Notes: generated from the letters alone by a model not told the origin. 42,682 nucleotides of DNA from Acidobacteriota bacterium (GCA_028749105.1 JAQUQF010000001.1:1-42682); one strand, 5' to 3'. Shown: positions 1,717 through 30,911, counted from the stretch's first letter. A program made the numbers and translations.

Positions 1717-1864
1717 ATTCACCCCTTGCATAGTCGTATAATCTTTATTATGAGTTGACCTCGCAATCCATAAAGCTCTATTTTGCAAGCACTTATGACT
1801 TCTGAAGATTTTGACCTTTGCATCTCCAAAATCATGATTTCATAAACCCTTGTAATTGTGTGAA

Positions 1865-2656
1865 TTATGGAAGTCGGTGGGGAGCGCTCCCAGCGCCAGG
1901 TTGGTCAGGTGGTCCCCCTGGATCGCCCAGGTCGGCCCCAGGATTGCTATCCAGCCGGACCCCAAGATTCCCCTGGCCGGCACTATCCGCGTCATTCCTG
2001 GCGGGTCCTGGCGTTTCCCTGGTCGCGCTATAGGGTTGGTCGCCGGCCGGCTGGACCTCCGCGCCATCAGGATCACTCGCGGCCTGGCGATTGGGATCCC
2101 CGGCCGGGCCCAGCAGCTTCCCCTTTGCCGCCGGCCTTTCCTCCTCCAAACCGATACGTGGTAGATTGTCCAGATACTCTCGGACATCCTCCGGCGTTAC
2201 TTCGCGCGTGGTCTCCACACGCACGGTGGGCCCGCCAGAAAGCAACTCTGATTTATCAGTCAGGATGCCCGCCAAAATCCCCAGATCGCGCGCAGGAATC
2301 TTTCGTGCGCGCTCATCATCAGACAGTAGTTCAATGATCCCCTCAACACACATGCGCGATGCTTCCCTACTCAAGGAAGCTATCCTTTGTTTTTCTATTG
2401 CTACATTCGCGGGCTCGCGCGCTCTGACCGCCAACACGGTGTGCGGACTCACGCACAGGATTCGCGCTATCCGCTGGACTCCTATTCCCTCCGCGCCCAA
2501 GGCAATTATGGCTCGATACTTTTCAGGCTCCGCAGAAAAAAGACGCGCCGCCGTGAAGGTTGGATTACGGCCACTTTCCTCCTCCTGAAAAAGACGCGCT
2601 GGCATCTGATCAGAAGAAAACAGCATAGGCTGTTGTTGTATCAACGATTCCGACAT
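1865..2656 (-). CDS. HTH DNA-binding protein with a helical middle domain and disordered acidic/Pro-rich tail; regulator or small-terminase-like
   Basis: ATG at 2656 preceded by AGAGGGAGTT. HTH-like GIGVQRIARILCVSPHTVLAVR, then LGILAGILTDKSELLSGGPT. The functional assignment is not resolved. Confidence 0.7.
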   Translation of the reverse strand: MSESLIQQQPMLFSSDQMPARLFQEEESGRNPTFTAARLFSAEPEKYRAIIALGAEGIGVQRIARILCVSPHTVLAVRAREPANVAIEKQRIASLSREASRMCVEGIIELLSDDERARKIPARDLGILAGILTDKSELLSGGPTVRVETTREVTPEDVREYLDNLPRIGLEEERPAAKGKLLGPAGDPNRQAASDPDGAEVQPAGDQPYSATRETPGPARNDADSAGQGNLGVRLDSNPGADLGDPGGPPDQPGAGSAPHRLP

Positions 2657-2979
2657 AACTCCCTCTGGACCTTACGCCAGTAAAAAACGGTCGCTGGTTT
2701 CCGATCGCCGCGGGGCCCACCATTCCAGATGCGCGCAATCCGCTCTGGACTGGCACTTGGTCCGGCGTAATGGCGAAGGTAAAGCTCAGCTATTCTGAGC
2801 GCGTGGTGGGGCACTAGCGCCGCGTGATGGGTGTATTGGGTGCCATAGATCCGATTGACATCCAGCACTACCGCCTTATGGATCTGCATGACCCCCAGGG
2901 CCCGGCCCTGATCGCCTACCGCGGCCGGGTTATTCCCCGACTCGACGATGATCATCGCCGCCAACAGTTGCGCCATCAC
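2641..2979 (-). CDS. Lytic transglycosylase / lysozyme-like (SLT, GH23-type) domain protein, 112 aa
   Basis: Catalytic-Glu motif IIVESGNNPAAVGDQGRALGVMQI plus downstream IARIWNGGP. GGGGGTGG Shine-Dalgarno before the GTG/ATG start at 2979/2976. Confidence 0.85.
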   Translation of the reverse strand: MMAQLLAAMIIVESGNNPAAVGDQGRALGVMQIHKAVVLDVNRIYGTQYTHHAALVPHHALRIAELYLRHYAGPSASPERIARIWNGGPRGDRKPATVFYWRKVQRELCRNR

Positions 2980-3206
2980 TTTCCACCCCCATCAGGCACA
3001 GGGAAAAAAAAGACGCCCCAGTTGCGCCGAACAGCGGCAGCTAGGACGCATGAACCATCAGCGGCCAGGTAACGGTTACCGGCCCAGGCAAGGACTTCTT
3101 GAGGCTGGCCAGGGCGGCCAGGATGCTGCTTAACGAGGATTGATTGCGGAAGATTTCCGCGATCAAAGAAAGCGGCGACGACTGAACTCAGCGGCCCCTT
3201 TGACAT
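2976..3206 (-). CDS. Hypothetical small protein (weak)
   Basis: ATG at 3206 (the track start at 3218 is TTG). Its stop overlaps the SLT start. No recognisable motif. Confidence 0.3.
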   Translation of the reverse strand: MSKGPLSSVVAAFFDRGNLPQSILVKQHPGRPGQPQEVLAWAGNRYLAADGSCVLAAAVRRNWGVFFFPVPDGGGK

Positions 3207-3216
3207 CACACCACCC

Positions 3217-3263
3217 AATCAACATCAGTAGGTAAAAGGATTCCCTACCGTAAGTGGTTGATT
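3217..3263 (-). other. Nested stem-loop in the leader just upstream of the 3206 start
   Basis: Outer arms AATCAAC (3217-3223) / GTTGATT (3257-3263). Inner arms GTAGG (3228-3232) / CCTAC (3244-3248). Confidence 0.5.
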
Positions 3264-3364
3264 ATCAAAGATTTGCAGAATGATAAGATTTATGCGACGT
3301 TCGCAATCTTACCGTTCTGGAGTCTTTGATACATCAACCGGGAAAAATCTCCCCAACTAAAGGC

Positions 3365-3393
3365 AAGCTACAGGCCGACGCTCATTCTGTCAA
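3365..3393 (-). promoter_or_regulatory. Candidate sigma70-type promoter reading leftward
   Basis: Minus strand TTGACA (3393-3388), 17-nt spacer, TAGCTT (3370-3365), in the AT-rich gap 3219-3406. The -10 element is weak. Confidence 0.3.
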
Positions 3394-3406
3394 GATTTAT
3401 TTTCAA

Positions 3407-4000
3407 TTATTTTAGCCGAAAGATTCTATCGGAAAATCTAGCTCGTATCGAAGAAACTATCTGATCGTCCGAACCGTAGGTGGCCAACAAAAACATTGGA
3501 TCCAATTCCTTATATTCAGCGCCTCCAGCAACTCTACTGAAGTAAGCAAACCGGATTTGGATGGCGACGGCATGATTCGATTTCAATACAGTTGGCCATA
3601 CCATCATAAAGGGAAATATAGATTTTGCTGCATCTTGTGATGTAGGGAAAAGGTGGAATCCATGCCGCAATAACTCATCCCTTATTGCTACCCTGATCTT
3701 TATGGCAACATCGGGCTCGGATCCTTCCTCCAATTCCGTGACATATGCATACTGCGGTTGCTGATTCAATCCTGGAATCAACGGCGCCAAGGCCGGGCTC
3801 GGACTCGCCGGAGCGGGCGGCGCCATCTCCGGCACGGCATCGCTTTCCCAGAAATTAGAGGTGGCGTTGGTCGGCATAGACTCCAGCTCAAAACCTGGCG
3901 GTAGTTCTGCCGATTTAAAACCCGGCGGCAGCCTGGGATCAGCGGCAAAGGCCACCACTACAAGTCCACAACAAAGGCAAATCAGGAGCATTGGTTTCAT
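3407..4000 (-). CDS. Secreted (Sec signal peptide) protein, 197 aa, with an N-terminal LPPGFKSAELPPGFELES motif shared with the giant protein
   Basis: ATG at 4000 in an ATGA overlap with 3997..4179. MKPMLLICLCCGLVVVAFA|ADP has an AxA cleavage site. The body of the gene is visibly lower in GC than its neighbours. Confidence 0.8.
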   Translation of the reverse strand: MKPMLLICLCCGLVVVAFAADPRLPPGFKSAELPPGFELESMPTNATSNFWESDAVPEMAPPAPASPSPALAPLIPGLNQQPQYAYVTELEEGSEPDVAIKIRVAIRDELLRHGFHLFPTSQDAAKSIFPFMMVWPTVLKSNHAVAIQIRFAYFSRVAGGAEYKELDPMFLLATYGSDDQIVSSIRARFSDRIFRLK

Positions 4001-4179
4001 AACTCCCCCCGTTGCCGGGCCCATCGGATCTTGGCGGCCCTAATCGCCGCCCGGCGTTTTCTCGCTCCTCGGCCGGCGTGGCCGCCAATCTTCCCCCAGG
4101 CGACTGCGGCGGCGTGGGTAATGATAGCGGTCTCAATCACCGTCCCGCACTTTGGGCAGATAACTTTTCCGCTGTTCAT
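3997..4179 (-). CDS. Small basic protein with a CxxC knuckle, 60 aa
   Basis: ATG at 4179 preceded by AAAGGAGGAAGA. MNSGKVICPKCGTV... with the tail GRGARKRRAAIRAAKIRWARQ. Confidence 0.6.
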   Translation of the reverse strand: MNSGKVICPKCGTVIETAIITHAAAVAWGKIGGHAGRGARKRRAAIRAAKIRWARQRGEL

Positions 4180-4390
4180 TCTTCCTCCTTTTGCGCTCAG
4201 CGGCCCGCTCGGCCGCATACCAGCGGGCCATAACCCAAAAGACCTTCGACAGCGCCGCCCGATATGTAATGCGCCGGCGCTCTTCCCGCAAGCCTAAAAT
4301 GTCCCCTGGCTCCAGACTTACAATCAGCCGCCGCCCAGAGGCTAATGGCCGCTCTCCGCGCCTTTTCACCGTCTTCTTTAGTCCTGTCAT
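4133..4390 (-). CDS. Hypothetical basic protein, 85 aa
   Basis: ATG at 4390 in an ATGA overlap with 4387..4617. Its 3' end overlaps the next gene by 47 nt. Confidence 0.55.
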   Translation of the reverse strand: MTGLKKTVKRRGERPLASGRRLIVSLEPGDILGLREERRRITYRAALSKVFWVMARWYAAERAAERKRRKNEQRKSYLPKVRDGD

Positions 4391-4617
4391 GATACACCCC
4401 TTAATATGGCGGCCAAGCGGGCATCGTCCGCGTCAATACGGCGTTGCAGCGACTCCGCCGCCCGGAAGTCTTCCCCTGCCACAAACCATTTGATTTCCTC
4501 GATGTGCTTCAAGATCAGGCGGGCCTTGTTGACCCCGAAACATACACCGTGATCCCTGGGATCCTCCTTCAAGATGATCGTGGGATGCCCGTGATACTGC
4601 GATCGTTCTGCACTCAT
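4387..4617 (-). CDS. Hypothetical protein, 76 aa
   Basis: ATG at 4617 preceded by AAAGGGGGGAACT. First gene after the AT-rich gap 4640-4804. Confidence 0.6.
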   Translation of the reverse strand: MSAERSQYHGHPTIILKEDPRDHGVCFGVNKARLILKHIEEIKWFVAGEDFRAAESLQRRIDADDARLAAILRGVS

Positions 4618-4804
4618 AGTTCCCCCCTTTCTTACCAACCCTATAGAGCAACTTTCATGCCAAGCAGCTTCGTATATGACAAGAATACATAATCCCCTTA
4701 TATTTCGACGCTTTTAGTTTTCGCCTGGGCACCAATCCGTAGCAGCTTCGCAAAAATGATATTGTAATTCCGCAAAACTGCTACGCGGCGGGGTGTTTGG
4801 ACGG

Positions 4805-7800
4805 CTAACGCCGGTCTTCTATGACCGTTTGTAGGCGCTGATATTTCTCGGCAGAGGTGGGAGCCTGGAGACTGGTTCGCAGGTCCAGAGGTAGAAGTTT
4901 GGCGATTTCTTCTTTCTTTACCGACTCCAGGAAGTTTGCCGCATAATGCCGCTTGATTGCCAGCGCCGGCGGTAATGGCTGGTTGGGATACTTCTGGAGC
5001 AGGTATGCTCCCTCTGCCAGTTTGACTCTGACCTCCGGCGTCAGAACATCTTGGAGCCGCCTGGTGCGCTTGAATGTCGCCATCATCTTATCTATTTCCA
5101 GCCGATTCTCGGCCATCTGATCCCCTGCTGACTTCGAACTCCGCGCCAGGTATTCCTTGTAGCCTACATTGGAGACCTTGAGCCGCCGCCCGAGACTGGC
5201 GGCCACCAGCGGGATCCGCAAAAACTTTTCAATCCCGCTGGTGGGCAGGTCCGGATTGGTATCAAACCGCCCGAGTAACCCGCCCAAGCTCTGATTCCAC
5301 TCCATTTGTGCGACCTTGATCGCGTCCTCGGGCCCGATCTCCCGGGCCTCATCCCGCGATAGCATCGGCCGCCCGCGCGCCATGGGATTTCCCCCGCCGG
5401 CCAGGATCAGGCCGTCATAGAGCATCTTGGTCATGGGGTTTATGCCTGGCAACTGTCCACCGGCGAACGAAGCCAGATTGCCGGCCACCTGCTTCCAGTC
5501 CTGGGCGGGCCCGATCCCCGCGAGCGCGAGCGCGCTGTTGGCCAGGGCCGCCACTACCCTCTCGGGTTCTGCCCAGACATGCCGGTAATAGAGGACTTTG
5601 CGCTCTTTCCTGTCCACCCAGCACAGAGGGATGCAGAGATAATTCATTTTATCAGATTCAGAGATGGAAAGATCCATTTCTTCGGATTCGTTACGCTTCT
5701 TCCGGCCGGCCAGCCACATCCCCAGGCCGCCAAAGACCAAGGCCCGCAGCGCCAACGGCCAGATCACCCGCCGGGCAGAGTTCCAGGCAAATTCGGCCGG
5801 CCGGTTCCGGGCTGTCCGCCAGAGCGAGCGCGAGCCCTCTTTGATTGCGTTGTAGAACAGAACAGCCAGGCGGATGTTGGGCGTATAACTCCCCTTTTCG
5901 AGGAAATCAGGCGAGCCGCTCATCATTCGCACCGTAATCCTCTTTTCCCATTCCGGCATATCGGGTTGGTATTTATCCAGGTGTTGCATCCCGGCAATCT
6001 TGACGGTTCGCTCTAAAACCTGGCCATATTCGCCCTGGTGCTTGAGCCAGTCTAGCATCACCCTAAATAATTCCTTGTCCCGGGTGCTGTCCAGGGGATC
6101 CAGGCCGCGCCGTTTCATTTCCCGGATAAACGGATCCGTCTCCGCGCCTTCGCCCCAATATCCTTCGCTACGGGATATGACCATCCCGCGCTTGAGGGCC
6201 AGCATGGCCAGCGCGTTTTCCCGCCCCGCGTATTGCTGGTGGGCTGCCCGGAAGCTCGATAATGCAAACTCCCCAAAGGCGCCCCCGGTCCCAGGCACGT
6301 ATTCCCGCCAGCGCCGCCAGGTCCCGGGCATCTGGAAGTTGAACGCGCCGACGTCTCGGGGAAAATTGGTAATAAACCAAAACCACGGATTCTTGGCCGT
6401 GATCCCGGAGGCGATCACGTCGTTGGCCACCTGGAGCGCGCCCTGGGCCAGGGAATGGGTCATAATCGAGTTACCCCGATTCCATTGGTCCACCAGGAAG
6501 CGCGGGGCATACCAGGCGTATAGCTCCCCTTTGTGTATGCAGTAAATTGTTCCAATCCGAGCATCATCGCGTTCAATAAACTCCAGCCGCCGCCCGGTCC
6601 ATTGTTTCTCTGCCTGCCGAAATAGATCCTGGTATGGCGAGTTGAGCATAGCCTGGATGGCCACCCATTTAGCGCGTTCTTTATACATCCAGTTGATCAG
6701 CGCGGCGCCCTTTAGTAGTGTGGCGCTTTCGGGGTTGGCAATCGGTCCGGTCATGCCGATTTGACGATAAACTTTATTCCCCACGCCCGATCCCAGCCGG
6801 TTGTTAAGCGCCTGCTGCAGGCTATCCTCGGTCTCATTCCAGCGCCCGCGGACCGCGGCAAACGTGCAATATACGCGGTTGTCTTCCAGCCATTTCTGGA
6901 GTGCTTCATCCAGGATCTCAAACTCCCTGGCCTGGCCGACGACCTCTTGCTGCCAGATCTCGGAGAGCTTCTTCTGCGAAGCTTCCAGGGCCGCAAACCG
7001 TTCCGGCCCCAGGTTGCGTTTCAATTCCTCGATCCGTTCCCTGGCGCTTTTCGGCGTGGCCAGCCAGGGGTTGGCCAGGTTCATCCGGCCGCCGGTGGAG
7101 TCCCGCCATTCGTAGCCTACCCGCAGCAGGAAGTCATACTCCCCGCGATCCTTCCGGTTGAGCCCCAGCTTTTCGCTGGGCGCCACCACTTCGGAATTGA
7201 CGCGCGCGGCAAATCGTTCAATGGGCGCCCCGCGGTAAAGGTAGTCGGAAAGCGCTCCCAGGGCCGGGCCGCCCTGGTCTTTGGGCAGGCGTTCCAGCCG
7301 CCATTGGTAGGGCCGGAAGATCCGGTCCAGTTTCATGCTGAATTCTTCCTGGCGCTCCATCCTGGTTGGCGCCAGGCTGGATTGGATCACCAGCAGTTGG
7401 TCCTGGGCTTCCATGTCCGCGCGCAGGTTGCGGACCCAATCCTCGCGCGCCGTGCCAGCCTTGATCTTCTCCTGAATCGCATCGTATTCCCGCTTGAGCG
7501 CCGGGCGTTGTTCCAGGTATTCGTAGAACAGGTGCGTGAATAGTGGCGCGCGCTTGTGGACCGCCGCCGGGTTATTGAGCAGGGCGCTGACCGCCTCGGC
7601 ATACATCTCCTCGGGCTTGTCGTAGTAGGGCTGCCATTCTCCTCCTCCGCGCCACCAGAGGATGAGGTTCTTGAGTTCGGCCTTGACCTGGCCTAGCGTG
7701 ATCATGCCGCGGCGATCGGTTTCACGCTTGACCAGTTCGGCGTAATGCTGGCTGACCTGCTTCTTCCAGGCGTCCCGTTGGCCAGCGGGCGGCCGTTTGC

Positions 7801-10800
7801 CAGCGCGGCGCTCGGCCTCGCGGCGCAGTAGCCGGCGATCCCGATCCGTCAGGGCTGCTTCTGGCGTGGCGGGCGTCTTGGCCATGGCCTCTTTCAGGTA
7901 ATTTCGCAGCGCCGCAATGTGTCCAAAGAGGTTTCCGCGGCCGTCAATCATCTCTTGTGGCAGCCAGTCCCCGAAATGTCCCACCTCGTGCATGGCCACC
8001 TTGGCGGCCAAAAGCGGGCCCTCGGCCAGGGCTTTCTCGACCTGGGCCTCAAAGAGCATCTTGTAACGCTCCCCGGCCGCGGCGCGCAGCTCTTCGGGGG
8101 TGGCCGTGGCGGGCAGGTTGAGCTTTGCCCATTCCTCGGCGTCTTGGGCCATACGTTCCTTCTCGTCCGGCTGGACCAGGTTGAAAATGCTGGCTTTGAG
8201 TTCAATTTCCCCCGGGGCGCGCAGTCGGAAGAGCCCCAGGACGCCGCGCTGGTTGCCGCGGAAGCGCTCTTTGATCTTCATCCAGCCGCCGCCGGTCAGG
8301 ACGCGGAAGAGCATCCCCACTTCCGGCAGTTCCATCGGGACGACGCTGTAATTGGGATCGTCCGCGATGGGGATCTTCTCGACCGTCCCCGCCTGCCCCA
8401 GGCCGGGCCCCGGCCAGCCGGCGCCGTAGGCGTCCGCATGCTCCTCCCCGCCCGGCCCCACGGTGCCCAGCTCCCTGCGGCCGCCGCGTTTCGGCGCGGC
8501 CGCCGGCTCGAGGTCGCTCATTTCTTTGCGGCCGGCTTCCACTTCCGGGATGAAGGCGGCCATGTCCACGTCTGCGCCGTTCTGGGCCATGAGCGCCACG
8601 TCCAGCTTCCGCTGGAGCACCCCAATCCGCTTCTGATCCCCAAAACTTGAGGGGGCGGTAAGGAATTGTGCATGGCTATTGCTCTTGGTGGTGCGCCGGC
8701 TGATTCGCCCCAGGAGTTGCTGGAAGACGTCCCCCGAGAAATCCATGGAAAGCACCAGCATTGTCCGGGGTTTGTCCCCTACCCGGTCGTCGAGGTTGAC
8801 TCCCGTTCCACCGCTTTTAGCGGTCATGACGGCGACCGGGACCTTGTCCTTCTGGAAAGCGTCAATGGCGGTGGTTTTATCGCCTTTGCCGAATATACTC
8901 GCAAACGGGATCTTGGCGGCCTCGAGCGCCTTGACCAGTTCCGTCGCGCTACCCGGAATGGTGTAATGCTTGCCGACCTGGGCATCCCAGATTTTCGCCA
9001 GCTTGAGTTTGCTCTTGATCATCCAGTCTGAATCTCCCGGCGCCGGTGCCGGCCGCCGCAGGCGTTCAGAGGCGTTGACGGAATCCACCACGATGATCAC
9101 CTTCTGGCCGGCGGCCAGGGCTTCTTTGGTGCGGCGTATGGCTTCCGGGACCTTGTGCGGTTCGGCCAGGTGGGCCATGGCTTGTGTCCGCAGGCCGCTT
9201 AAAATTATCCGGTATTTGCTCCTTGGGGGTAGGCTCCGGATGGCTTGGTCATAATAGGCCAGCATCCGTTGTTCATGCTCGGCCACTTCGCGCGGCATTT
9301 CAACGTTGGTTCTCTCCAGTTTGCCCAGGAATGGATATTCCCGGCGGATCATGGCGCCGTTCTTGATGGCGCCCAGGCGCATAAGGGCCAGGTTTTGCTT
9401 GATACGTGGCCAGTCAAATCCCTGCAAGGGGACGACCACTTCCGTTATTTCGCCAGTTTCGGGATCCTGTTTCTCCTTAATCTCAAATCCCAGCAGGTTT
9501 GCGATGTAATCGGGTTGCAAACCGGTGATCTCGGCCATGAAATAGGCCGCGCCCGTTGGCCGGTCCATCGGCGTTGCGGTGGCAAAGACAATAAACTCCG
9601 CGCTGCGGACCAGTTTCTTGCTGGCTATGGTTTTGCTTGCCAGGGAGTTCTTGAGGTTGTGGCTTTCGTCCATCATTACCACGTCAAACTTCCTCCCGGC
9701 GATTGGATGCGTCGTCGGTTTCACCTGCTCCAGATGCTTGAGTGCGACCGGATTTTCCCCGCTGACTCCTGTATATGTGGCCAGGTAAAACCGATTCAGA
9801 TCAATCTTCAGGCGCTTGGCGTCGTCCAGGAAGCTTCCTTGCAGGATTGATTTTGCCTGGGTCACGATCAGGATCTTGGATTTCCCGCCGCTCTGTTCGT
9901 ATAGTTCGTTGGCGGCTGCCAGCATTTCGGTGGTCTTGCCCAGCCCGACCCCGTCGCCCAATAGATAGCCGCGCTGCTTCTTCTTCGCCCGGGTGAGGAT
10001 GGCGTTGACGCCCAGGCGTTGCTCTTCGCTCATGTCGTATTTCCCGCGGGGGACTATTTCCTCGGGTTGGGGGATGTCGGCCTGGTTGACTACGATCAGG
10101 TCCGTGCGTTCCTTGCCGGGCCCGGGGATAAACTTCTCGCGCGGTTTGGTGTCGTCAGCGGCTTCAATCTTGCCTTGCTTGACCTCTCCCCAGACGGCTA
10201 TCTCGCCGGATTGAATCATATTTCCGGCCAGCTTGGCGATTTCCTCGTATTTGCCCGCAAAGCGTTCACCATAGCGGGCCAGGACCGCCTGGGCGGCCTC
10301 GGGTGTGATCAGCGCCGGCGCCTGGCCGGTTTTCTGAGCGCTTTCAACCGCCGCGGCGGCGACCGCCCGGGCCCCGGCGCGGAGTAACTTTTCTTGTTCT
10401 TGGCTGTAGTCCGCGGGGGCCTCACCGAAGCGCTGGGAGTGGGCGGGCATGCCGAAGGTCAGTTCCGGCCGGTGTGCGCCGGGCTGCGGTAGCTGCATCT
10501 CTTGTCGCAGGCTGCGGCCCAGGGTGGAGACCACGTCCAGCAGAACGTTGTTGTCCAGCGCTTGCCGCCAGGTGGGCAGGTAGCGCTCGAATTGCTCGGG
10601 GGTTACCGCGGCCAGCAGGCTGTTGGCGCCTGTCTGCCGGGCTAGCCGGCGGGCGGTGGCCTGTTGCCGGGTGAGATTGTCCTCCAGCGTGGCTTCCTGG
10701 AGTTCCGCCAGGCAAACGACTTTGCCCGGACTGGTTATGCCGATCATGAGGATGGTATTCTTCGGCCGCTGACCGTAGGCCGCGTTGATCTGTATCACCT

Positions 10801-13800
10801 GCAGTTCGCTGCCTATCTTGGCGCCTAAAAGCGGATGGGGTGTGTCAGGGGTCAGCAGGGGATCCGGGGCGGCGGCCAGGGCTTGATCTTCGATGATTCT
10901 ATAGTTGCCTTCCGGGTCGTAGTATCCGAATTTGCCGTGATCGCCCACCAGGGCGCCTTTCATCCGCGGTCCTATGAGTTGCCGCAGCGCAACCGTCATC
11001 TGTTTGTCTTCGGCGCTGGTGCGCTTCACGTCCCCGCTCGGGTGGTTGTGAAAGGCCATGATTTCAAGGTCAAGCTCTTCGGCCAGTTGTTTGATCGGGA
11101 TGGCGATCTCATCGTAATTCCGGGGCATGTGGACTGCGCCAGGCAGGCGGCTGGTAATGGGTAAGTCCAGCACCACCTGGCCGCTGGCGCGGTCGGATGC
11201 CAGCAGGTGAAAGACCTCTAACCGCGCGCAGCGGGCGGCGCGGACGAGTTGCTGGATGCCGGCCAGGGTGTTGAGTTGGTGGCCGATCAGCGGCGCGACG
11301 CCGTTGAGGGAGAGTTCGTAGGCAATGCCGCGGCCGGTAAGGGTGAGCCGGCGTGGTAGTCCGGGGTGCTGCGGGTCAGATACCCTGCCGCCTGAAACCT
11401 CGCTGATCGCTTCGAGCGCTGTTTTGATGTTGGCGACTTTGTCTTCGCCTGCTCGTTGGGGGTAGTCATTGAAATCCAGCTCCAGTTGTTGATAGTCCTC
11501 GCCGGGTTCGGAATATCTGGTTGGTGCTGCGGTCTTTTCTATCCGGGCGCGGAGTTCCGGGCGTAGGGCCGGACGCTCCCAGATAAAATCTGGCATGTGG
11601 CCGATTTCCGGGAAGGGTTCGGCGCTCCACCCCTTTGCGATGAGATCGGTTACCTCAGGATCCAGGGTAAAGATTTCGGCAGGGGATACACCCCGTTCCA
11701 CGGCCTCTTTATACCATTCCCGGCCGCGCGCGGTTTGCAGACGCTTGATCGCCCAGGCCGTCTTTTCGGTGCTGTAGATGTAGATGAGCCTTTGGTTTTC
11801 ATAGGTGTCCGGCTTTAGGGACGTCATTTCCTCGACCACCTGGGCCGGGAAGGGACTGTAAATATCCGGCTTTTCTAATAGCCTACCCTGGGTTTTGGTG
11901 GCGTCAAGGAATAAATCTGGCTGCGGCGGCGGCAGGACCACCGGGACCTGGCGGGCCAGCCAGCGAGTATGTTTGGCCGTGGCTAGCTGTATCCTGATGC
12001 TGGCTTCCTCTTCCGTGATCCTGCCTTCGTCCAGGGCGGTGATCAGGGCCTTGGCCTTCTGAATCATTGCCCGGCTGGCCAGCCCGGCAGCATCCCCCGT
12101 CGCCGGGCCGGCCAGCTCCATCCCGGCGATCTCCTCGATCTCCTGGCGCGCCTTGGTCTTGGGCTTTTCGGACGGGAATAGTTCCGGCTGGGTGAAAAGC
12201 GCGTTGTATGCCGCCGGGACGTCGCGGACCGTTACCACCGGCGCGCCAAAGGTGTCTTCCGGAAGTTCCTTGCCATACTTTGTAGCCGCTTCGCCCACCT
12301 TGGGCGGGTTGATCAGCGCGTCTAGCTCGTCCAGGGCCGCCTGGCTCAACCCCACCGGCCCCGCCGGCGGCTGTCCTGGCGTGGGCGTTGTCGGGATCCC
12401 GGCCTCGGCCGGCGGCGCCGGCGGCTGTCCTGGCGTGGGCGTTGTCGGGATCCCGGCCGCGGCCGGCGGCGGCTGTCCGGCCGCCAGGGATTCAGGGAAG
12501 CCTTCCATCCCGCGGCTGATATGCTCCAACAAGTCAATCTTGACGGTGCTGGGTGGTTTGCCGGTGAAAAGTTCAAGCTGGTCCTTGCGGACCTGCACGG
12601 CCATTTGTGCATATTTCTCCAAAGCCTCCCGGAGTTGTTTGGCGCTCTTGGCTTGGGTGAGGATCAACGCCAGGCGGCGCTGTTCGGGGCTGGCGTTCTT
12701 GAACATATCGAGCTGCGAAAAGAAGAGCTCCATTGTCGGGAAGGTTCCTTCCGTGACCAGGCGCTTGCCTTCCAGGATGAATGGCATGGTGGCGCTGATC
12801 TCGGGGGCCAGATCAAACTCCGGCCGGGTGGCCTTGAGGCGCGCCAGGACTGGCGTGGCGGCGGTGATACCGCGCAGCATGTCCTTGACCCGGTATTCTC
12901 CGGCGCGTTCCAGGAGCGCCGCGACCGAGTCGTGAACGCCTGGATCATCCCGTAACAGCAGGGCTAGCAGGGCTCGCTGGATCCGGGCCTCGGTCTTCTC
13001 TGGCAAAAGCAGGCCGCGGCTGTCGAAGAGATCGCTGGAGTCGTCTATGCCCGCCAGGAATCCCTCAATAAAGCTCTTATTGCTGGCCGCTGTAATCTCG
13101 CCGCTTTCCGGCAGATTCATGGCCGCCAGTAGGTTCCCGGCGCTGATTACCTCGGCGTCAGCCAGGGATTTCTCGGATTCGGACATCGTCTGCGTTACCG
13201 CGCGGTTGCTTTCTCGCGCGAAGTCCGGCGCGTCGGTGCCGGTGTAACTGCTGATAATGCGCGCCACAAACGGCTTGGTCATACCTGCCGGTGGCGGCCC
13301 GATCTTTACTTTCTGCGCCAGGGCAGCAGAGTAGTCCTTCAATGCCACCTTCCGGGGGTCGTTGTCGTCCAGGGCATAAACGTCCTCCAGGGTGTCCATG
13401 CGCCCGTAACCGGCCACCGGCCGACCTACGGCGGCGTCTATCATCGGCGCGCCGTAGTCGCTGGTGGTGGATTCTCCCAGGCGGTCAGGAGCGAATTCCT
13501 GCAGTCGCCGGCTCCGGCTCATGGTGTAGATCTTCCGCTGGCGGTTGCGTTCCTGCAGCCCGGCGAGTTGGGACGCGTTGATGTTCCGCGCGGCTTTGAC
13601 CTGGGGATCGTCCAAATCCAGCCAGGCGTAATAGCCTTCCGCCACCTTCCCGGGGACCTGCGGCGCTTGCACACGGAAGCCTACCACCCCCGCCGGCGCC
13701 GGCGGGATCCGCACCTGGGGCTTGACCACCGGCGCCAGGGGCGGCACGGCCGGCCCGGCGGCCGGCGGCGTGGCGGCTAAAGCCTGCCGGATCCCCGCCA

Positions 13801-15484
13801 GGGCCGGGTCTGTTCCCGGCAGGGCCGGCAGTAACCCCGTCCCACGCCGGGCTTCGGGCGCAGGGCCCCTGGCGGCCAGGGGTTGCTGTTCGATTCCGAT
13901 CCCGCGCGCGCGGGCCAATTCCGCTTGGGCCGCCTTGTCGCCTTTGCGCGCCCGGGCCGCCAGATCTTTCTGCCGCAATGCTTCCGCGCGTTCGGCGCCT
14001 TGGACTTTCTCGCGCCATTCTTCGCGGAATCGGGCGGCATCTCCCCAGGCTTTGGCCAGTTCTTTGTCTTTGAGATAAAGATCCACCTGCTGCTGGGCCC
14101 GAGCGTCCCCTTGCATGGCCGCTGTTACCCAGGTGTTTGCTGCTTTTGCGTCTAAGCCTTGCTTGATCAACTGGCTGACCGCCTGGCCAGCCAGGACTTG
14201 TTGCACCATATCCGGGAGTTGCATGCCAACGAGTAGAGCAAAGGTGTTGCGGACGTCTTCGCTGGTTACCTCCTGCCCCATGGCTTTCTGCGCGGCAGAG
14301 AGTTCCAGGGTTCTGAGCCCGGCGCCGGCAAGTTGCTTGGCCACCCTTTGGAACGCGCCGCCTTGGGGCGTAAACCATTTCGGCAAGGGCGTTCGCAAGA
14401 GTATTCCCGAGACCGCCGATGCTCCCAGGCCTTGCATATCCCATTGTGGCTTCTCGCCGGCTGTAACCCGCATATCATTGTCAAGCATCTGGTGCTGTAG
14501 GTTGAGGAGTGGCAAGCCTACCCATGGGACGCTGGCAATCAGCGCGTCGCCGCCCAGCGCAAAGCGGGGAATATCCTGGAGCAGAGTGTCCGCCAGGGAG
14601 TTGCCGGTCCCCAGCTCTCCCATCCGTATAGCGGCGTCCTTGACTTCCTGGGGCGTGAACACTTCTTTCCGGCGTTCACCGGTAACGGGGGAATAGTAGG
14701 TTTCCGGGTGCGTGGCCAGCTCAAGACGTTGGGTTACATTCCGGACGGCCTTCCCGGCGACTGATGGCCCGAAAACCCCCAGAAATGGCTTTCCAAGCGC
14801 TTCCCGGAAGAATCCGCCGCCACGGGCGTATTCCCGGGCTTGAACCTCCAGGGGTTTCGGCGGCGGCGGAAATAGCCGTTCCTGGACGCGCTGCAGCACG
14901 GATTTGGGTTGATCGGGAGCCCGTAGAACGGGGCCCTCTTCCGGCTGCATGGCGGCGGCGGTCTCCATCCAGGCTTTGGGATCTGTCGGCTCCGGCGGGA
15001 TCGCCAGGTAAGGCATCAGATCCTGGTCCAGCCGGATTAGCTGCTGGGGTTGGACGAATTCAGCGGCCTTTGTGGAAAATTTCGGCGGCGGCGGGGAGAT
15101 CGCCACCTCCGGCGGCTGGCTGACCCCGACCGGCGGCGGGGCGCCCTGTAAGAGGGTCTCACCTGGCGGCAGCTCGGCCTGCGGCGGAATTGCCCCAGGC
15201 GGCTCAAAGCTAAACCCCGCCGGCAACATCTCCAGCTCAAACCCAGGCGGCAATTCCCCCTGGCCGGCCGGTGGCGCTTCCAGCTCAAACCCAGGCGGCA
15301 AGGCCGCCGGGTCAGCCTGCTGCACCGGTGGCGCCTCCAGCTCAAACCCAGGCGGCAATTCCCCCTGGCCGGCCGGTGGCGCTTCCAGCTCAAACCCAGG
15401 CGGCAAGGCCGCCGGGTCAGCCTGCTGCACCGGTGGCGCCTCCAGCTCAAACCCAGGCGGAAAATCTATCTGATCCCGTTCCAT
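4805..15484 (-). CDS. Giant polyvalent protein, 3,559 aa: PPGFELE repeats, RadC-like JAB, SNF2-family ATPase, HExxH zincin motif, hydrophobic unassigned C-terminal region
   Basis: Single uninterrupted ORF with ATG at 15484. The motifs listed in the sub-features below were read directly from the translation. Confidence 0.92.
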   Translation of the reverse strand: MERDQIDFPPGFELEAPPVQQADPAALPPGFELEAPPAGQGELPPGFELEAPPVQQADPAALPPGFELEAPPAGQGELPPGFELEMLPAGFSFEPPGAIPPQAELPPGETLLQGAPPPVGVSQPPEVAISPPPPKFSTKAAEFVQPQQLIRLDQDLMPYLAIPPEPTDPKAWMETAAAMQPEEGPVLRAPDQPKSVLQRVQERLFPPPPKPLEVQAREYARGGGFFREALGKPFLGVFGPSVAGKAVRNVTQRLELATHPETYYSPVTGERRKEVFTPQEVKDAAIRMGELGTGNSLADTLLQDIPRFALGGDALIASVPWVGLPLLNLQHQMLDNDMRVTAGEKPQWDMQGLGASAVSGILLRTPLPKWFTPQGGAFQRVAKQLAGAGLRTLELSAAQKAMGQEVTSEDVRNTFALLVGMQLPDMVQQVLAGQAVSQLIKQGLDAKAANTWVTAAMQGDARAQQQVDLYLKDKELAKAWGDAARFREEWREKVQGAERAEALRQKDLAARARKGDKAAQAELARARGIGIEQQPLAARGPAPEARRGTGLLPALPGTDPALAGIRQALAATPPAAGPAVPPLAPVVKPQVRIPPAPAGVVGFRVQAPQVPGKVAEGYYAWLDLDDPQVKAARNINASQLAGLQERNRQRKIYTMSRSRRLQEFAPDRLGESTTSDYGAPMIDAAVGRPVAGYGRMDTLEDVYALDDNDPRKVALKDYSAALAQKVKIGPPPAGMTKPFVARIISSYTGTDAPDFARESNRAVTQTMSESEKSLADAEVISAGNLLAAMNLPESGEITAASNKSFIEGFLAGIDDSSDLFDSRGLLLPEKTEARIQRALLALLLRDDPGVHDSVAALLERAGEYRVKDMLRGITAATPVLARLKATRPEFDLAPEISATMPFILEGKRLVTEGTFPTMELFFSQLDMFKNASPEQRRLALILTQAKSAKQLREALEKYAQMAVQVRKDQLELFTGKPPSTVKIDLLEHISRGMEGFPESLAAGQPPPAAAGIPTTPTPGQPPAPPAEAGIPTTPTPGQPPAGPVGLSQAALDELDALINPPKVGEAATKYGKELPEDTFGAPVVTVRDVPAAYNALFTQPELFPSEKPKTKARQEIEEIAGMELAGPATGDAAGLASRAMIQKAKALITALDEGRITEEEASIRIQLATAKHTRWLARQVPVVLPPPQPDLFLDATKTQGRLLEKPDIYSPFPAQVVEEMTSLKPDTYENQRLIYIYSTEKTAWAIKRLQTARGREWYKEAVERGVSPAEIFTLDPEVTDLIAKGWSAEPFPEIGHMPDFIWERPALRPELRARIEKTAAPTRYSEPGEDYQQLELDFNDYPQRAGEDKVANIKTALEAISEVSGGRVSDPQHPGLPRRLTLTGRGIAYELSLNGVAPLIGHQLNTLAGIQQLVRAARCARLEVFHLLASDRASGQVVLDLPITSRLPGAVHMPRNYDEIAIPIKQLAEELDLEIMAFHNHPSGDVKRTSAEDKQMTVALRQLIGPRMKGALVGDHGKFGYYDPEGNYRIIEDQALAAAPDPLLTPDTPHPLLGAKIGSELQVIQINAAYGQRPKNTILMIGITSPGKVVCLAELQEATLEDNLTRQQATARRLARQTGANSLLAAVTPEQFERYLPTWRQALDNNVLLDVVSTLGRSLRQEMQLPQPGAHRPELTFGMPAHSQRFGEAPADYSQEQEKLLRAGARAVAAAAVESAQKTGQAPALITPEAAQAVLARYGERFAGKYEEIAKLAGNMIQSGEIAVWGEVKQGKIEAADDTKPREKFIPGPGKERTDLIVVNQADIPQPEEIVPRGKYDMSEEQRLGVNAILTRAKKKQRGYLLGDGVGLGKTTEMLAAANELYEQSGGKSKILIVTQAKSILQGSFLDDAKRLKIDLNRFYLATYTGVSGENPVALKHLEQVKPTTHPIAGRKFDVVMMDESHNLKNSLASKTIASKKLVRSAEFIVFATATPMDRPTGAAYFMAEITGLQPDYIANLLGFEIKEKQDPETGEITEVVVPLQGFDWPRIKQNLALMRLGAIKNGAMIRREYPFLGKLERTNVEMPREVAEHEQRMLAYYDQAIRSLPPRSKYRIILSGLRTQAMAHLAEPHKVPEAIRRTKEALAAGQKVIIVVDSVNASERLRRPAPAPGDSDWMIKSKLKLAKIWDAQVGKHYTIPGSATELVKALEAAKIPFASIFGKGDKTTAIDAFQKDKVPVAVMTAKSGGTGVNLDDRVGDKPRTMLVLSMDFSGDVFQQLLGRISRRTTKSNSHAQFLTAPSSFGDQKRIGVLQRKLDVALMAQNGADVDMAAFIPEVEAGRKEMSDLEPAAAPKRGGRRELGTVGPGGEEHADAYGAGWPGPGLGQAGTVEKIPIADDPNYSVVPMELPEVGMLFRVLTGGGWMKIKERFRGNQRGVLGLFRLRAPGEIELKASIFNLVQPDEKERMAQDAEEWAKLNLPATATPEELRAAAGERYKMLFEAQVEKALAEGPLLAAKVAMHEVGHFGDWLPQEMIDGRGNLFGHIAALRNYLKEAMAKTPATPEAALTDRDRRLLRREAERRAGKRPPAGQRDAWKKQVSQHYAELVKRETDRRGMITLGQVKAELKNLILWWRGGGEWQPYYDKPEEMYAEAVSALLNNPAAVHKRAPLFTHLFYEYLEQRPALKREYDAIQEKIKAGTAREDWVRNLRADMEAQDQLLVIQSSLAPTRMERQEEFSMKLDRIFRPYQWRLERLPKDQGGPALGALSDYLYRGAPIERFAARVNSEVVAPSEKLGLNRKDRGEYDFLLRVGYEWRDSTGGRMNLANPWLATPKSARERIEELKRNLGPERFAALEASQKKLSEIWQQEVVGQAREFEILDEALQKWLEDNRVYCTFAAVRGRWNETEDSLQQALNNRLGSGVGNKVYRQIGMTGPIANPESATLLKGAALINWMYKERAKWVAIQAMLNSPYQDLFRQAEKQWTGRRLEFIERDDARIGTIYCIHKGELYAWYAPRFLVDQWNRGNSIMTHSLAQGALQVANDVIASGITAKNPWFWFITNFPRDVGAFNFQMPGTWRRWREYVPGTGGAFGEFALSSFRAAHQQYAGRENALAMLALKRGMVISRSEGYWGEGAETDPFIREMKRRGLDPLDSTRDKELFRVMLDWLKHQGEYGQVLERTVKIAGMQHLDKYQPDMPEWEKRITVRMMSGSPDFLEKGSYTPNIRLAVLFYNAIKEGSRSLWRTARNRPAEFAWNSARRVIWPLALRALVFGGLGMWLAGRKKRNESEEMDLSISESDKMNYLCIPLCWVDRKERKVLYYRHVWAEPERVVAALANSALALAGIGPAQDWKQVAGNLASFAGGQLPGINPMTKMLYDGLILAGGGNPMARGRPMLSRDEAREIGPEDAIKVAQMEWNQSLGGLLGRFDTNPDLPTSGIEKFLRIPLVAASLGRRLKVSNVGYKEYLARSSKSAGDQMAENRLEIDKMMATFKRTRRLQDVLTPEVRVKLAEGAYLLQKYPNQPLPPALAIKRHYAANFLESVKKEEIAKLLPLDLRTSLQAPTSAEKYQRLQTVIEDRR
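7900..8300 (-). other. Zincin-like metallopeptidase motif region of the giant protein
   Basis: HEVGH at nt 7976-7990 (aa 2499-2503). A downstream EMYAEAVSALL supplies a possible third-ligand Glu. The fold is not verified. Confidence 0.55.
8670..10030 (-). other. SNF2-family SF2 ATPase/helicase module of the giant protein
   Basis: Motif I GDGVGLGKT (about 9930-9960). Motif II DESHNLKN (9647-9670). Motif III TATP. Motif V SGGTGVNLDD. Motif VI QQLLGRISRR (8693-8722). Confidence 0.85.
10880..11290 (-). other. RadC-like JAB/MPN (JAMM) domain of the giant protein
   Basis: HNHPSGDVKRTSAED (nt 11006-11050, aa 1479-1493) fits H-x-H-x7-S-x2-D, with an upstream Glu in ARLEVFHLL. Confidence 0.75.
12366..12458 (-). 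repeat. Duplicated 39-nt block (54-nt period) encoding GIPTTPTPGQPPA linker repeats inside the giant gene
   Basis: ggcggctgtcctggcgtgggcgttgtcgggatcccggcc occurs at 12366-12404 and again at 12420-12458. Confidence 0.85.
15230..15460 (-). repeat. 105-bp tandem repeat, 2.2 copies, encoding (PPGFELEAPPVQQADPAAL-PPGFELEAPPAGQGEL)n
   Basis: Copies start at 15230, 15335 and 15440 (partial) and look identical by eye. There are six PPGFELE motifs in aa 8-95. Confidence 0.9.
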
Positions 15485-28628: not shown

Positions 28629-30911
28629 TCAGTTCGGGCTTGGCAGGCCGCGCCCCTCTTCCTTCCACCCTTCCTCTTCCTGCTGACCTCTGACCTCTGT
28701 CCTCTGACCTCTGTCTTCCAGCGCCGGCGGCGCGCCCTGGCGGCCGATCTGGGCGTTGGCGCCGTATTGCTGTGCCAGGAATTGTAGCCGCTGGATCCGG
28801 CTCTGCAGGATCGCGGCTTTGTCGGGGGGCAGGTCGTTGAAGATTTCCGGGTTGGCTTGCTGGATTTGCTGGTAAAAGGCGGCGCGGGTGGCGTAGTCTT
28901 CGCTGCCATCATCCGAAAGGGGTGGCTCCATCCCAGCCCGGATTTGCTGATATTTGGCGGTCTCATCCTGGGTTTCATCTCTCACCGCCTGGTCGCGGTG
29001 CTTGAAGGCCGCCGGGGCCACGCCAGGGACCAGCCGATATAAAAACTCTTCCACGATCGGGCCGGAGTCCACCTGCTGGCTGCGGTCCATGGCCAGGACA
29101 AGCTCCTTGAGCATCTTGCCTTTTTTCATCATCTTTTCGGCGTCCAGGTCTTCGGGGTCGAATTGGAGTTCCAAATCAAATTGACCCTGGATCTCTTCGC
29201 GGCCGGCGGCAAAGAGGGGTTGCCCTTGCGCGTTGGTGATGCGTTGAATAATCTCGTCCGGCATGAATTGTTGCACGAGCTTGAAGACCTGCCCCAGGAC
29301 TTCACGCAGGTTGAGCAGCCACCATAAGACCTTGAATTCCCGGGCCAGTTGCGGACCGCTGGGGGGGTTGTCTTTGTTCTCGCGGCCGAAATAGTCGTCC
29401 ACCTGCCGCCGGATCTCCATGATCATGTTGACGACCGTTTGCGGGTATTGGGGGGGCGCCAGCCATTTGTAGTCGCCGTCGCGTTTGGCCGGCAGCTCGC
29501 CCAGCGGACGCAGCCGCAGGGCGCCCATGCGGGCCCGGCCGCGGGTGATCATGGGTGGCACACCGGAAAGCTGGGCGTTGTCACCGAAACTGTCGCAGTA
29601 GAGTTTCAGGAGTCCCTGGTAGGATGCCGCCAGGGTGCCCAGGCCGCGGGCGTCCAGCATCCGGCCGCTGATGGTCTCGCGCTGGAAGACGTGCCCGGGA
29701 TACCCGCCGTGAACGTAGTTGATCAGTTCCGGGGGTTTGGCCGGATCCTTAACGTCTTTGTGGAAGACCACATAAAACCGGCCGGGGATCCCGTCGTCGT
29801 TGAGTGCCCGGAAATACGCGGTGATGATGTTGTAGAGGCCGCGGTAATAGCTGGGGTCCCTGGCCGTCAGGGGTCCGTTGAGGGTCTCGCGGGTGTATTC
29901 CGGGACCGCGCTCTCGCCTTCATGGCCTTGCTCGCCGTCTTTGCCCACCACGGCTTCAACGAAGTCTTGGTCCCAGCCTTCGGAAGTGATGCGTTCGTAG
30001 AGCTGGGCTTTGGTGAGCCAGTCGCTCTCGAAATATACTCGCGCTTCCTGAAATTCCCCGGTGTTGCGCGGTATAAACCATTCTTCCCAGATCCGTTTGC
30101 CCTCGATCATGGGTTGATTGGCGCTGATGTAGGGCTCCGGGTATTCGGCGCTGCCGGTCTCGCGGAGTTGCTTGATCATCTGCTTGGCCCGGCGTGGCCG
30201 CAAATGCGGGAAGAATTCCTTGAGGATGCTTTGCAGGTATTCCGCGTTGGTCGCCGCGGGGGCCTGGAGCGCACCCAGGAAGTCCTGGGCGGCCAGCGCC
30301 AGTTGGCCGGCTTTTGTTTCCTCGTCCAGGCCGGATTGCTCCAGCTCTTGCTGGGCGCGCTGGAGATATTGCTCCAGGAGTTCTTCGGCGGTAATGTTGG
30401 TGAGCCGCAGGCTGGTTTCGCGTTTCCAGTAGATTTTCAGCAGGGCTACGGCGGGGGTGTCGCCAATGTAGTAGTTGGCCACTTTGGCCAGCTCTTTGAT
30501 CCAGGTCAAACCCCAGATGTTCATGAGCACGTAGCGCATGAGGATCGTGAGCTTGGCGGCTTTGCGGGCGTCTTCTTCGGTTACCCCGGAAAACTTGATC
30601 CGGGCCCGCATGGCCGCCGTGATCAGGAGCGCCACGTCTTCGTTGATGAGTAAATCTGCCAGGCGTATCTTCTGGTCGCAGGCGCCGTCAAAGGGTTCGG
30701 GCTCTTCTTCGTCCACGGCGTGTTTCAGGCCGTCGTCGGATTGGTTTTCCCAGAAGGCCAGCCGCGTGTTGTCCGTGGTGATCCGTTTTTCCCAGATGTC
30801 CGCGCTTTCCCGGGCTAGGTCTTCGAGTTCGGCTTTGATCTCGTCGAGGGTCAGCCCGCTTTCGGGCCAGGTCAGAATCCCATCGCCGGCCACCTGGTCG
30901 AAGTCAGGCAT
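28629..30911 (-). CDS. Probable portal protein, 760 aa
   Basis: Size, position in the head module, an N-terminal RLAFWENQSDDG motif reminiscent of P22-type portals, and a Gln-rich helical C-terminus. The call is by resemblance only. Confidence 0.6.
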   Translation of the reverse strand: MPDFDQVAGDGILTWPESGLTLDEIKAELEDLARESADIWEKRITTDNTRLAFWENQSDDGLKHAVDEEEPEPFDGACDQKIRLADLLINEDVALLITAAMRARIKFSGVTEEDARKAAKLTILMRYVLMNIWGLTWIKELAKVANYYIGDTPAVALLKIYWKRETSLRLTNITAEELLEQYLQRAQQELEQSGLDEETKAGQLALAAQDFLGALQAPAATNAEYLQSILKEFFPHLRPRRAKQMIKQLRETGSAEYPEPYISANQPMIEGKRIWEEWFIPRNTGEFQEARVYFESDWLTKAQLYERITSEGWDQDFVEAVVGKDGEQGHEGESAVPEYTRETLNGPLTARDPSYYRGLYNIITAYFRALNDDGIPGRFYVVFHKDVKDPAKPPELINYVHGGYPGHVFQRETISGRMLDARGLGTLAASYQGLLKLYCDSFGDNAQLSGVPPMITRGRARMGALRLRPLGELPAKRDGDYKWLAPPQYPQTVVNMIMEIRRQVDDYFGRENKDNPPSGPQLAREFKVLWWLLNLREVLGQVFKLVQQFMPDEIIQRITNAQGQPLFAAGREEIQGQFDLELQFDPEDLDAEKMMKKGKMLKELVLAMDRSQQVDSGPIVEEFLYRLVPGVAPAAFKHRDQAVRDETQDETAKYQQIRAGMEPPLSDDGSEDYATRAAFYQQIQQANPEIFNDLPPDKAAILQSRIQRLQFLAQQYGANAQIGRQGAPPALEDRGQRTEVRGQQEEEGWKEEGRGLPSPN

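Follow-up and report, generated by a model that had tools for sequence, protein, structure and literature searches.

The DNA analysed here, which we call the window, is the stretch of 42,682 nucleotides (nt) from an Acidobacteriota bacterium deposited as JAQUQF010000001.1 (assembly GCA_028749105.1). Its largest open reading frame (ORF) encodes a giant polyvalent protein of 3,559 amino acids (aa), the last third of which had been described in an earlier note as a zincin motif followed by about 1,000 unassigned residues with membrane-like helices. We found that nt 4805–8347 encode one conserved C-terminal module of ~1,180 residues (aa ~2380–3559), in which a zincin-like domain is followed in order by a mostly helical region of ~560 residues and one moderately hydrophobic helix; a divergent domain of LPD38 type and a helical tail complete it. 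The module is very distantly homologous to the C-termini of giant podovirus proteins of the 'large polyvalent / DarB-like' type. The features to which the text refers are as follows.

4805–15484, minus strand: gene for the giant polyvalent protein, 3,559 aa, largest ORF of the window
8396–8419, minus strand: GWPGPGLG linker motif, aa 2356–2363, ~20 aa upstream of the module
7445–8347, minus strand: predicted zincin-like metallopeptidase-type domain, aa 2380–2680, from AlphaFold2 secondary structure and conservation
7976–7990, minus strand: HEVGH, aa 2499–2503
7931–7939, minus strand: R2516-G2517-N2518, a near-invariant motif following the HExxH helix
7577–7609, minus strand: EMYAEAVSALL, aa 2626–2636, with E2626 the candidate third zinc ligand
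5768–7444, minus strand: post-zincin region, aa 2681–3239, mostly helical, without a covering Pfam model
aa ~2960–2994: beta-hairpin patch within the post-zincin region, from AlphaFold2 secondary structure
Conserved motifs of the post-zincin region: N3032-x2-F-x8-D3044, E3158-R-T-x-K3162, G-S-P-x-F (3190–3194) and F-x-N (3210–3212)
6353–6391, minus strand: NPWFWFITNFPRD, motif with conserved N/F/D where a helix starts; the family as a whole is not hydrophobic here
5705–5767, minus strand: hydrophobic helix VIWPLALRALVFGGLGMWLAG, aa 3240–3260, followed by GRKKR and directly preceding the LPD38-equivalent region
5267–5692, minus strand: divergent LPD38-equivalent region, aa ~3265–3406, holding S-x-x-D-K-x-N-Y-x-x-I-P-L
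4808–5266, minus strand: C-terminal helical tail, aa 3407–3559, with which both the module and the protein end

The C-terminal module and its relatives

The strings HEVGH, GNLFGH, EMYAEAVSALL, NPWFWFITNFP (aa 3032–3042, nt 6359–6391) and the hydrophobic helix lie where the earlier note had placed them, and its estimate of the unassigned length was accurate as far as routine annotation goes, as the 1,060 residues after HExxH gave no Pfam, PHROG or PDB match even at lenient thresholds. The module itself begins near aa 2380 (nt 8347) and not at HEVGH, because a conserved helix and a three-stranded sheet precede that motif. From there to the C-terminus no Pfam match was obtained even at E ≤ 10, no PHROG match, and no PDB sequence match with either the whole module or its halves.

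The further suggestion that this region matches nothing, and is therefore a likely new domain, did not survive comparison of structures and profiles. Foldseek comparison of the predicted module with the viral models in BFVD gave 63 matches at E ≤ 1e-3 (best 1.8e-33), with template modelling (TM) scores of ~0.4 over 900–1,400 columns at only 12–18% identity. The matches were C-terminal pieces of proteins described as 'large polyvalent protein associated domain (38)-containing', and included Escherichia phage PTXU04, Ralstonia phage Alix, Cellulophaga phage phi46:3 and entry A8HNV9. The last of these we take to be the entry of Thalassomonas phage BA3, its fragment of 1,316 being half of the 2,631 aa of BA3_0002. 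This protein (L010, nt 1851–9746, minus strand), the product of the second-to-last gene of the BA3 late operon, contains a methyltransferase, HEMAH at 1628, a hydrophobic helix at 2291–2308 and a Pfam LPD38 domain at 2312–2484 (E 2.5e-46); the ~680 residues between its HExxH and LPD38 gave no Pfam match. GenBank annotates all BA3 proteins as hypothetical, and the PHROGs that cover the BA3-type module are labelled 'unknown function' or named after a neighbouring domain.

When a profile of 152 aligned full modules was compared by hhalign with the C-terminal 1,133 aa of BA3_0002, the local alignment had a probability of 98.2% (E 5e-14) and the global alignment a probability of 99.2% (E 3e-18) over 895 columns. 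The alignment pairs HEMAH with HEVGH, IEGFAEF with EEMYAEA, the hydrophobic helix of BA3_0002 with residues 3233–3250, and its LPD38 domain with residues ~3265–3406. The motif after the helix reads I-P-D-Y-E-K-x-x-N-W in BA3, I-P-E-Y-D-x-x-N-Y in the family consensus and ISESDKMNY in the window protein. The segment at ~3265–3406 is thus homologous to the BA3_0002 protein across its LPD38 segment, and it lies near the C-terminus of a giant phage protein of a structural operon, as LPD38 does in JC1 gp69. The Pfam LPD38 model (PF18857) matched neither the window protein (E ≤ 10) nor ten of its close family members (E ≤ 1), and all PHROGs and tblastn likewise fail to detect the window protein. With PTXU04 gp25 (2,197 aa; L011, nt 1858–8451, plus strand) the profile aligned over module positions 448–912 (95% probability, E 1.8e-8); this protein retains the post-zincin core together with the hydrophobic helix and the first part of LPD38. 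The post-zincin region was aligned to both proteins, and BA3_0002 and PTXU04 gp25 show at their extreme C-termini the same order of parts as the window protein, namely an HExxH domain (in most), a long helical region, one hydrophobic helix, LPD38 and a helical tail. A tblastn search with the BA3 module reached 53 phage records, from Vibrio and Shewanella phages, PTXU04, six Pelagibacter phages, Planktothrix phages and 14 records of Bacillus megaterium podophages (for example Page), which shows that the module also serves phages of Gram-positive hosts.

The window protein itself belongs to a large metagenomic family. A seed search with residues 2380–3559 yielded 16 relatives of 1,991–4,462 aa on contigs of 12–45 kb (several of ~42–45 kb), and in all 16 the HExxH sits 954–1,249 residues before the C-terminus. 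A later HMMER scan, exhaustive over 1.84 billion cluster representatives, matched 1,595 clusters at E ≤ 1e-3, 1,346 at ≤ 1e-10 and 734 at ≤ 1e-30. In 164 representatives the module ended a median of 2 residues from the C-terminus, and the N-terminal extension before it ran from 1 to 3,353 aa (median 967) and varied in its domains, which included ParB, ArdC-N, methyltransferases and Sbno-type or SNF2 helicases. Such an arrangement, an unchanging C-terminal part behind changing N-terminal domains, is that of a fixed chassis loaded with variable cargo. Relatives in GTDB were found mainly in metagenome-assembled genomes (MAGs) of Verrucomicrobiota, Lentisphaerota and Opitutales. The module of one relative (P0009, on the 42,358-bp JGI contig L013) is 31–34% identical to that of the window over 76% of the query; in the comparison of that contig with 15488–30911 of the window, none of eight upstream structural proteins had a BLASTP match at E ≤ 1e-3. 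The module is therefore among the best-conserved parts of these phages; either its conservation far exceeds that of the neighbouring genes, or phages have exchanged it.

Two other relatives deserve mention here. A complete ParB + module protein of 1,702 aa is encoded at nt 8552–13660 (plus strand) of a 3.54-Mb contig (L004) of a Ca. Synoicihabitans MAG; it has an intact HEIGH and matches the family hidden Markov model (HMM) over its full length. The 4,462-aa relative (P0017) bears the Pfam labels PF28553, PF28554 and PF28555, which are absent from the Pfam version searched here and might cover parts of the module in a newer release.

The zincin-like domain and the hydrophobic helix

Residue conservation, counted over the 152 aligned full modules, was most striking around the HExxH. 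H2499, E2500 and H2503 were kept in 150, 152 and 152 relatives respectively, D2506, three residues past HExxH, in 147, and R2516, G2517 and N2518 in 147, 151 and 151; E2626 was kept in 151, and E or D was found at position 2630 in 149. The GNLFGH string of the earlier note corresponds to aa 2517–2522, where His2522 is variable and the conserved part is R2516-G-N2518. Judged by this conservation the HExxH is no chance match, and selection on the putative catalytic residues is strong. AlphaFold2, run on a 22-sequence alignment of the whole module, gave for it a predicted local distance difference test (pLDDT) value of 72.5 and a predicted TM score (pTM) of 0.61, and for the isolated domain a pLDDT of 75.5. 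Both models contain a helix at 7–18 and strands at 24–26, 38–41 and 47–51 (module numbering; pLDDT ~65–78); the HExxH falls in a predicted helix at 112–125 of the module, and E2626 starts another at 245–258. The predicted order is therefore helix, three-strand sheet, helical insert, HExxH helix, long insert and Glu helix. The insert between the HExxH and Glu helices was poorly modelled; HExxH and Glu are 123 aa apart in the window protein, as against ~75 aa in minimal relatives, and short relatives lacking both inserts have a compact core of ~190 residues. The earlier note had called this arrangement gluzincin-like, and the near-invariant HExxH, the Asp at +3, Glu2626 and the order of elements in the AlphaFold2 models agree with that description; as no significant similarity to any established zincin was found, we call the domain only zincin-like. 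A predicted zincin-like peptidase whose modelled topology matches the zincin core is supported, not proven.

The zincin-like metallopeptidases (MPTases) of polyvalent proteins, such as P1 DdrB, resemble the domain in having an HExxH helix, a downstream Glu helix, an Asp at +3, variable inserts between helices and fusion to a ddrB-ParB domain. They differ in that the His at the end of strand 2 in the MPTase clade is Leu in the window protein (it is present in 40 of the 152 relatives) and in that the 123-aa insert is unusually long. Direct homology to P1 DdrB was considered and rejected, since only the 20-residue HExxH helix aligned, with a probability of 24%. One member of the family, the 4,462-aa relative, gave a sub-threshold Peptidase_M48 match (E 0.0021). 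Upstream of the module, a (W/Y)PGxxLG or GGxLG motif recurs ~15–25 residues before its start in many relatives, within linkers that are otherwise unconserved, and the GWPGPGLG of the window protein may accordingly be regarded as a candidate site of self-cleavage or processing.

The membrane-like stretches fared less well. Residues 3240–3258 have a Kyte-Doolittle hydropathy (KD) of 1.64 and are the only 19-mer above 1.6 in the whole protein, and the helix 3240–3260 is the only segment that is hydrophobic on family average (mean 1.23). At this position the best windows of the 152 relatives had a median KD of 1.40, reached 1.6 in only 25% and mostly contained one charged residue; no other 19-mer of the module reached 1.6 in any of the 152. 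Additive Hessa-type insertion energies, which are approximate in their scale values and include no positional terms, were +3.46 kcal/mol here and +5.1 at the median, and positive in all 152 (≤ 0 in none). In the AlphaFold2 model the segment ends a 30-residue helix (module 850–879) along which pLDDT drops from ~85 to ~54, and it aligns with the hydrophobic helices of BA3_0002 (2291–2308) and PTXU04 gp25. The second stretch that the earlier note had singled out, NPWFWFITNFP, is a conserved polar/aromatic motif (N3032, F3035, D3044) and is not hydrophobic in the family. One of the two stretches, a conserved but marginally hydrophobic helix, therefore stood, and the idea of membrane-inserting segments was weakened, as no conserved segment has the properties of an autonomously inserting transmembrane segment. 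A single, positionally conserved and marginally hydrophobic helix directly before LPD38 fits either a soluble core helix or a conditionally inserting one, and the module does not fit a classical transmembrane protein. Foldseek matches in PDB to helical-repeat, BAR and transporter proteins were non-significant and we did not read them as evidence for a membrane protein.

The giant gene, its phage and the contig

Within the giant protein, Pfam and PHROGs recognise only parts upstream of the C-terminal module:

aa 628–742: ddrB-ParB domain (Pfam/PHROG match)
aa ~1474–1503: RadC/JAB domain, with its motif near 1479 (Pfam/PHROG match)
aa 1816–1975: SNF2/ResIII helicase (Pfam/PHROG match)

The N-terminus of the protein (15205–15484, minus strand) contains several LPPGFELEAPP repeats, and PPGFKSAELPPGFELE occurs in a signal-peptide protein encoded at 3407–4024 (minus strand). 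The plus-strand ORFs at 6000–6545 and 6761–7543, within the region of the module, we take as shadow ORFs of a 61% GC gene.

The window makes up the whole of contig C116, which belongs to a MAG of 2.17 Mb and 77% completeness, and a search for a terminal repeat found none. It encodes a large terminase (weak match), a DnaB-type helicase, an SU10-type major capsid protein, a Kelch-repeat fibre-like protein and a small SLT lysozyme, and we concluded that the element is a podovirus-like phage of a divergent type. A late block of co-directional structural genes ends with the giant gene, beyond which lie small genes and the lysozyme; in the relative on the 42,358-bp contig the giant gene likewise closes the late structural operon. 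The SU10-type capsid gene (32277–33281, minus strand) lies upstream of the sole portal-like ORF (28629–30911, minus strand), and the match of the latter to the SU10 portal is sub-threshold (E 1.2e-4, 21 bits against a cut-off of 30 bits); because this gene order is unusual and the match weak, the portal assignment is uncertain. A search of 300 other genomes from the MAG's phylum did not recover the C-terminal module. We therefore set aside a prophage origin within that phylum and consider the contig more likely to be a binned phage than a common prophage.

Proposed role of the module and the alternatives

We infer, with a probability of about 0.6, that the module serves as an unvarying chassis for packaging and ejection, by which a variable set of anti-defence enzymes is carried into the host. 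In this mechanism the module would bring the polypeptide into the capsid and, at infection, take it out by way of the tail; the changeable N-terminal enzymes (ParB-like, JAB and SNF2 helicase in the window protein, as against a methyltransferase in BA3_0002) would in this way reach the host together with the DNA. The protease-like domain would most likely cut the polyprotein itself, perhaps at the PGxxLG linker, and would make no attack on the host envelope; the fold would be mainly soluble and helical, and at most the hydrophobic helix would make a conditional membrane contact during ejection.

Work on related proteins bears on this proposal. Polyvalent proteins hold many anti-defence domains, their main hub domain is a zincin-like peptidase that has been proposed to process the polyprotein, an Asp three residues past HExxH has been described for the phage-type peptidases, and LPD38 is limited to phage-type polyvalent proteins (Iyer et al. 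2017, PMC5512222). Burkholderia phage proteins JC1 gp69 and Bcep22 gp75 and the Stx phage protein phi24B gp47 are all reported to have LPD38 near the C-terminus of a giant virion protein; JC1 gp69 and phi24B gp47 are linked to the module solely through that reported domain, whereas PTXU04 gp25 was aligned directly. JC1 gp69 (4,515 aa; LPD38 at 4195–4401 and an N-terminal lytic-transglycosylase-like domain at 80–192) was among the most abundant matches in purified virions (PMC9144972). The phi24B protein, given as 2,811 aa in the proteomics section of its report and as >3,000 in the Discussion, has LPD5, LPD1, LPD38 and MuF-C peptidase domains and is abundant in virions and absent from the cryo-electron microscopy map; its authors propose it as an ejection protein forming a periplasm-spanning conduit, suggest peptidoglycan degradation, and list the role of the constant C-terminal end as an open question (bioRxiv 10.64898/2026.04.10.717836). 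Knock-down of the PTXU04 gp25 gene, classed as 'Fit', strongly reduces plating efficiency on the laboratory host (PMC11879866).

A number of results weigh against the proposal, or against parts of it. No match to the giant protein was obtained by blastn and tblastn against 50,697 GenBank phage records, and in Foldseek searches of PDB nothing significant was found for the whole module (best E 0.23) or, as a zincin fold, for the isolated domain (best E 0.53). The AlphaFold check that the earlier note had called for thus gave a predicted topology that fits a zincin and no matching PDB fold. A PDB profile search with a 9-sequence zincin alignment was also empty, and the giant protein had no Pfam zincin match at E ≤ 10, so that the proposed zincin identity is read from motifs and a predicted topology only. 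PTXU04 gp25 has no HExxH anywhere in the protein; at least one essential relative can therefore do without the protease, and since the protein aligns all the same, the post-zincin core is an independent and more widely conserved unit. The homologue in the Ca. Synoicihabitans MAG lies not in a phage but among ordinary cellular genes (two SPFH/Band-7 genes and genes for a sulfatase, a class-V aminotransferase, a SIS/CBS protein and fumarase), and a scan of the seven larger ORFs that flank it within ±10 kb showed none to be phage-like; this copy may have been left behind by a prophage or have been domesticated. The virion RNA polymerase of phage N4, whose C-terminal 1,400 aa, including a zincin, are required for encapsidation (PMC5512222), offers an analogy that is architectural only: gp50 is giant (3,500 aa), is injected from the virion and has HELVH at 2228, ~1,270 aa before its C-terminus, but it lacks LPD38, and hhalign of its C-terminus with the module gave a probability of 0.2% with nothing beyond the HExxH helix, in a comparison whose single-sequence target makes for low sensitivity.

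The module might instead do more at the membrane than our proposal allows, inserting into one or both host membranes and forming or remodelling an envelope-spanning DNA conduit with the help of the protease, much as P22 gp7, gp20 and gp16 or T7 gp14–16 do. Like those ejection proteins, which are carried inside the capsid, the giant proteins may work from within the virion, and some relatives bear a lytic transglycosylase as T7 gp16 does (JC1 gp69 and the LT_GEWL matches in BFVD), in the same polypeptide as the module; one giant polypeptide would here do the work of three proteins in the P22 and T7 sets, and no similarity of sequence or fold between the module and those proteins was found. The position of the hydrophobic helix, here followed by GRKKR, is kept from the window family to BA3 and PTXU04, in the last of which the gene is essential, and a conduit was independently proposed for phi24B gp47. 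BA3 has P22-type portal, coat and gp10-like proteins, as opposed to the SU10-type capsid protein and sub-threshold SU10-portal match of the window phage, and its giant gene comes after the tail-accessory genes and ahead of the final gene of the operon, a position that corresponds, in the P22 gene order, to that of ejection genes 7, 20 and 16. Against a conduit, there is a single candidate helix, of which only a quarter of the 152 versions reach KD 1.6 and which has no companion at that value; its insertion energy (+3.5 kcal/mol here) is nowhere ≤ 0; no solved channel or pore protein was matched by Foldseek in PDB; and the occurrence of the module in podophages of Gram-positive Bacillus megaterium argues that it is not tied to a double-membrane envelope. 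We regard a conduit of this kind as unlikely.

That the zincin-like domain is an effector protease directed at a host protein (a defence sensor or an envelope component) or at peptidoglycan, with the downstream part serving for targeting or substrate binding, seems to us quite improbable, even though its catalytic motif is under strong purifying selection, polyvalent proteins are rich in anti-defence domains (PMC5512222) and peptidoglycan degradation was suggested by the phi24B authors. The ~900 downstream residues are kept where HExxH is missing, as in PTXU04, and so are no mere accessory of a protease, and a target specific to the host is made less likely by the constancy of the module across Verrucomicrobiota-type MAGs, Vibrio, E. 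coli, Bacillus and Pelagibacter. To our knowledge, moreover, HExxH zincins are not usual peptidoglycan hydrolases, which counts against the peptidoglycan variant. An unrecognised enzyme in the post-zincin region, that is, a truly new catalytic effector domain, is very improbable. The region has no Pfam or PDB counterpart and contains conserved polar residues (K2925, N3032, D3044, E3158, K3162, S3191, N3212, D3278, R3309 and N3366), but, to judge from their spread and the predicted secondary structure, these are scattered over ~600 residues of helical repeats; the invariant C-terminal place and fixed length (954–1,249 aa after HExxH) suggest a structural or assembly unit, and in these proteins effector domains are the variable parts.

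Beyond the chassis proposal, a bolder scheme can be put forward tentatively, and we think it rather unlikely. The core of ~700 residues common to PTXU04 and BA3 (helical region, hydrophobic helix and LPD38) could be a widespread and hitherto unrecognised single-polypeptide ejection machine that would be stored in soluble form in the capsid and refold at infection, its marginally hydrophobic helix entering the cytoplasmic membrane and opening a path for the DNA; it would thereby replace the three-protein ejectosomes of P22 and T7, and once inside the cell the anti-defence cargo would be released through cleavage by the zincin.

The module is thus not a new membrane domain but a divergent member of the MPTase + LPD38 C-terminal module. 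Its kind is already known (Iyer et al. 2017, and several phage genome papers), and what is new is a subfamily to the domain databases, a large metagenomic branch of 1,595 clusters that is invisible to Pfam, PHROGs and BLAST. Treating the constant part as a single unit of ~1,100 residues goes beyond the published domain maps of the MPTase and of LPD38, and an essential gene of an E. coli phage retains the core of this unit although the protease motif is missing there. Giant polyvalent proteins fill 20–25% of many podovirus genomes, and PTXU04, the BA3-like Vibrio phages and Bacillus phage Page are tractable models for the loading and delivery of a large protein cargo. Should the module alone suffice to package and deliver a protein, it could be used as a carrier of proteins with phage particles in laboratory strains.

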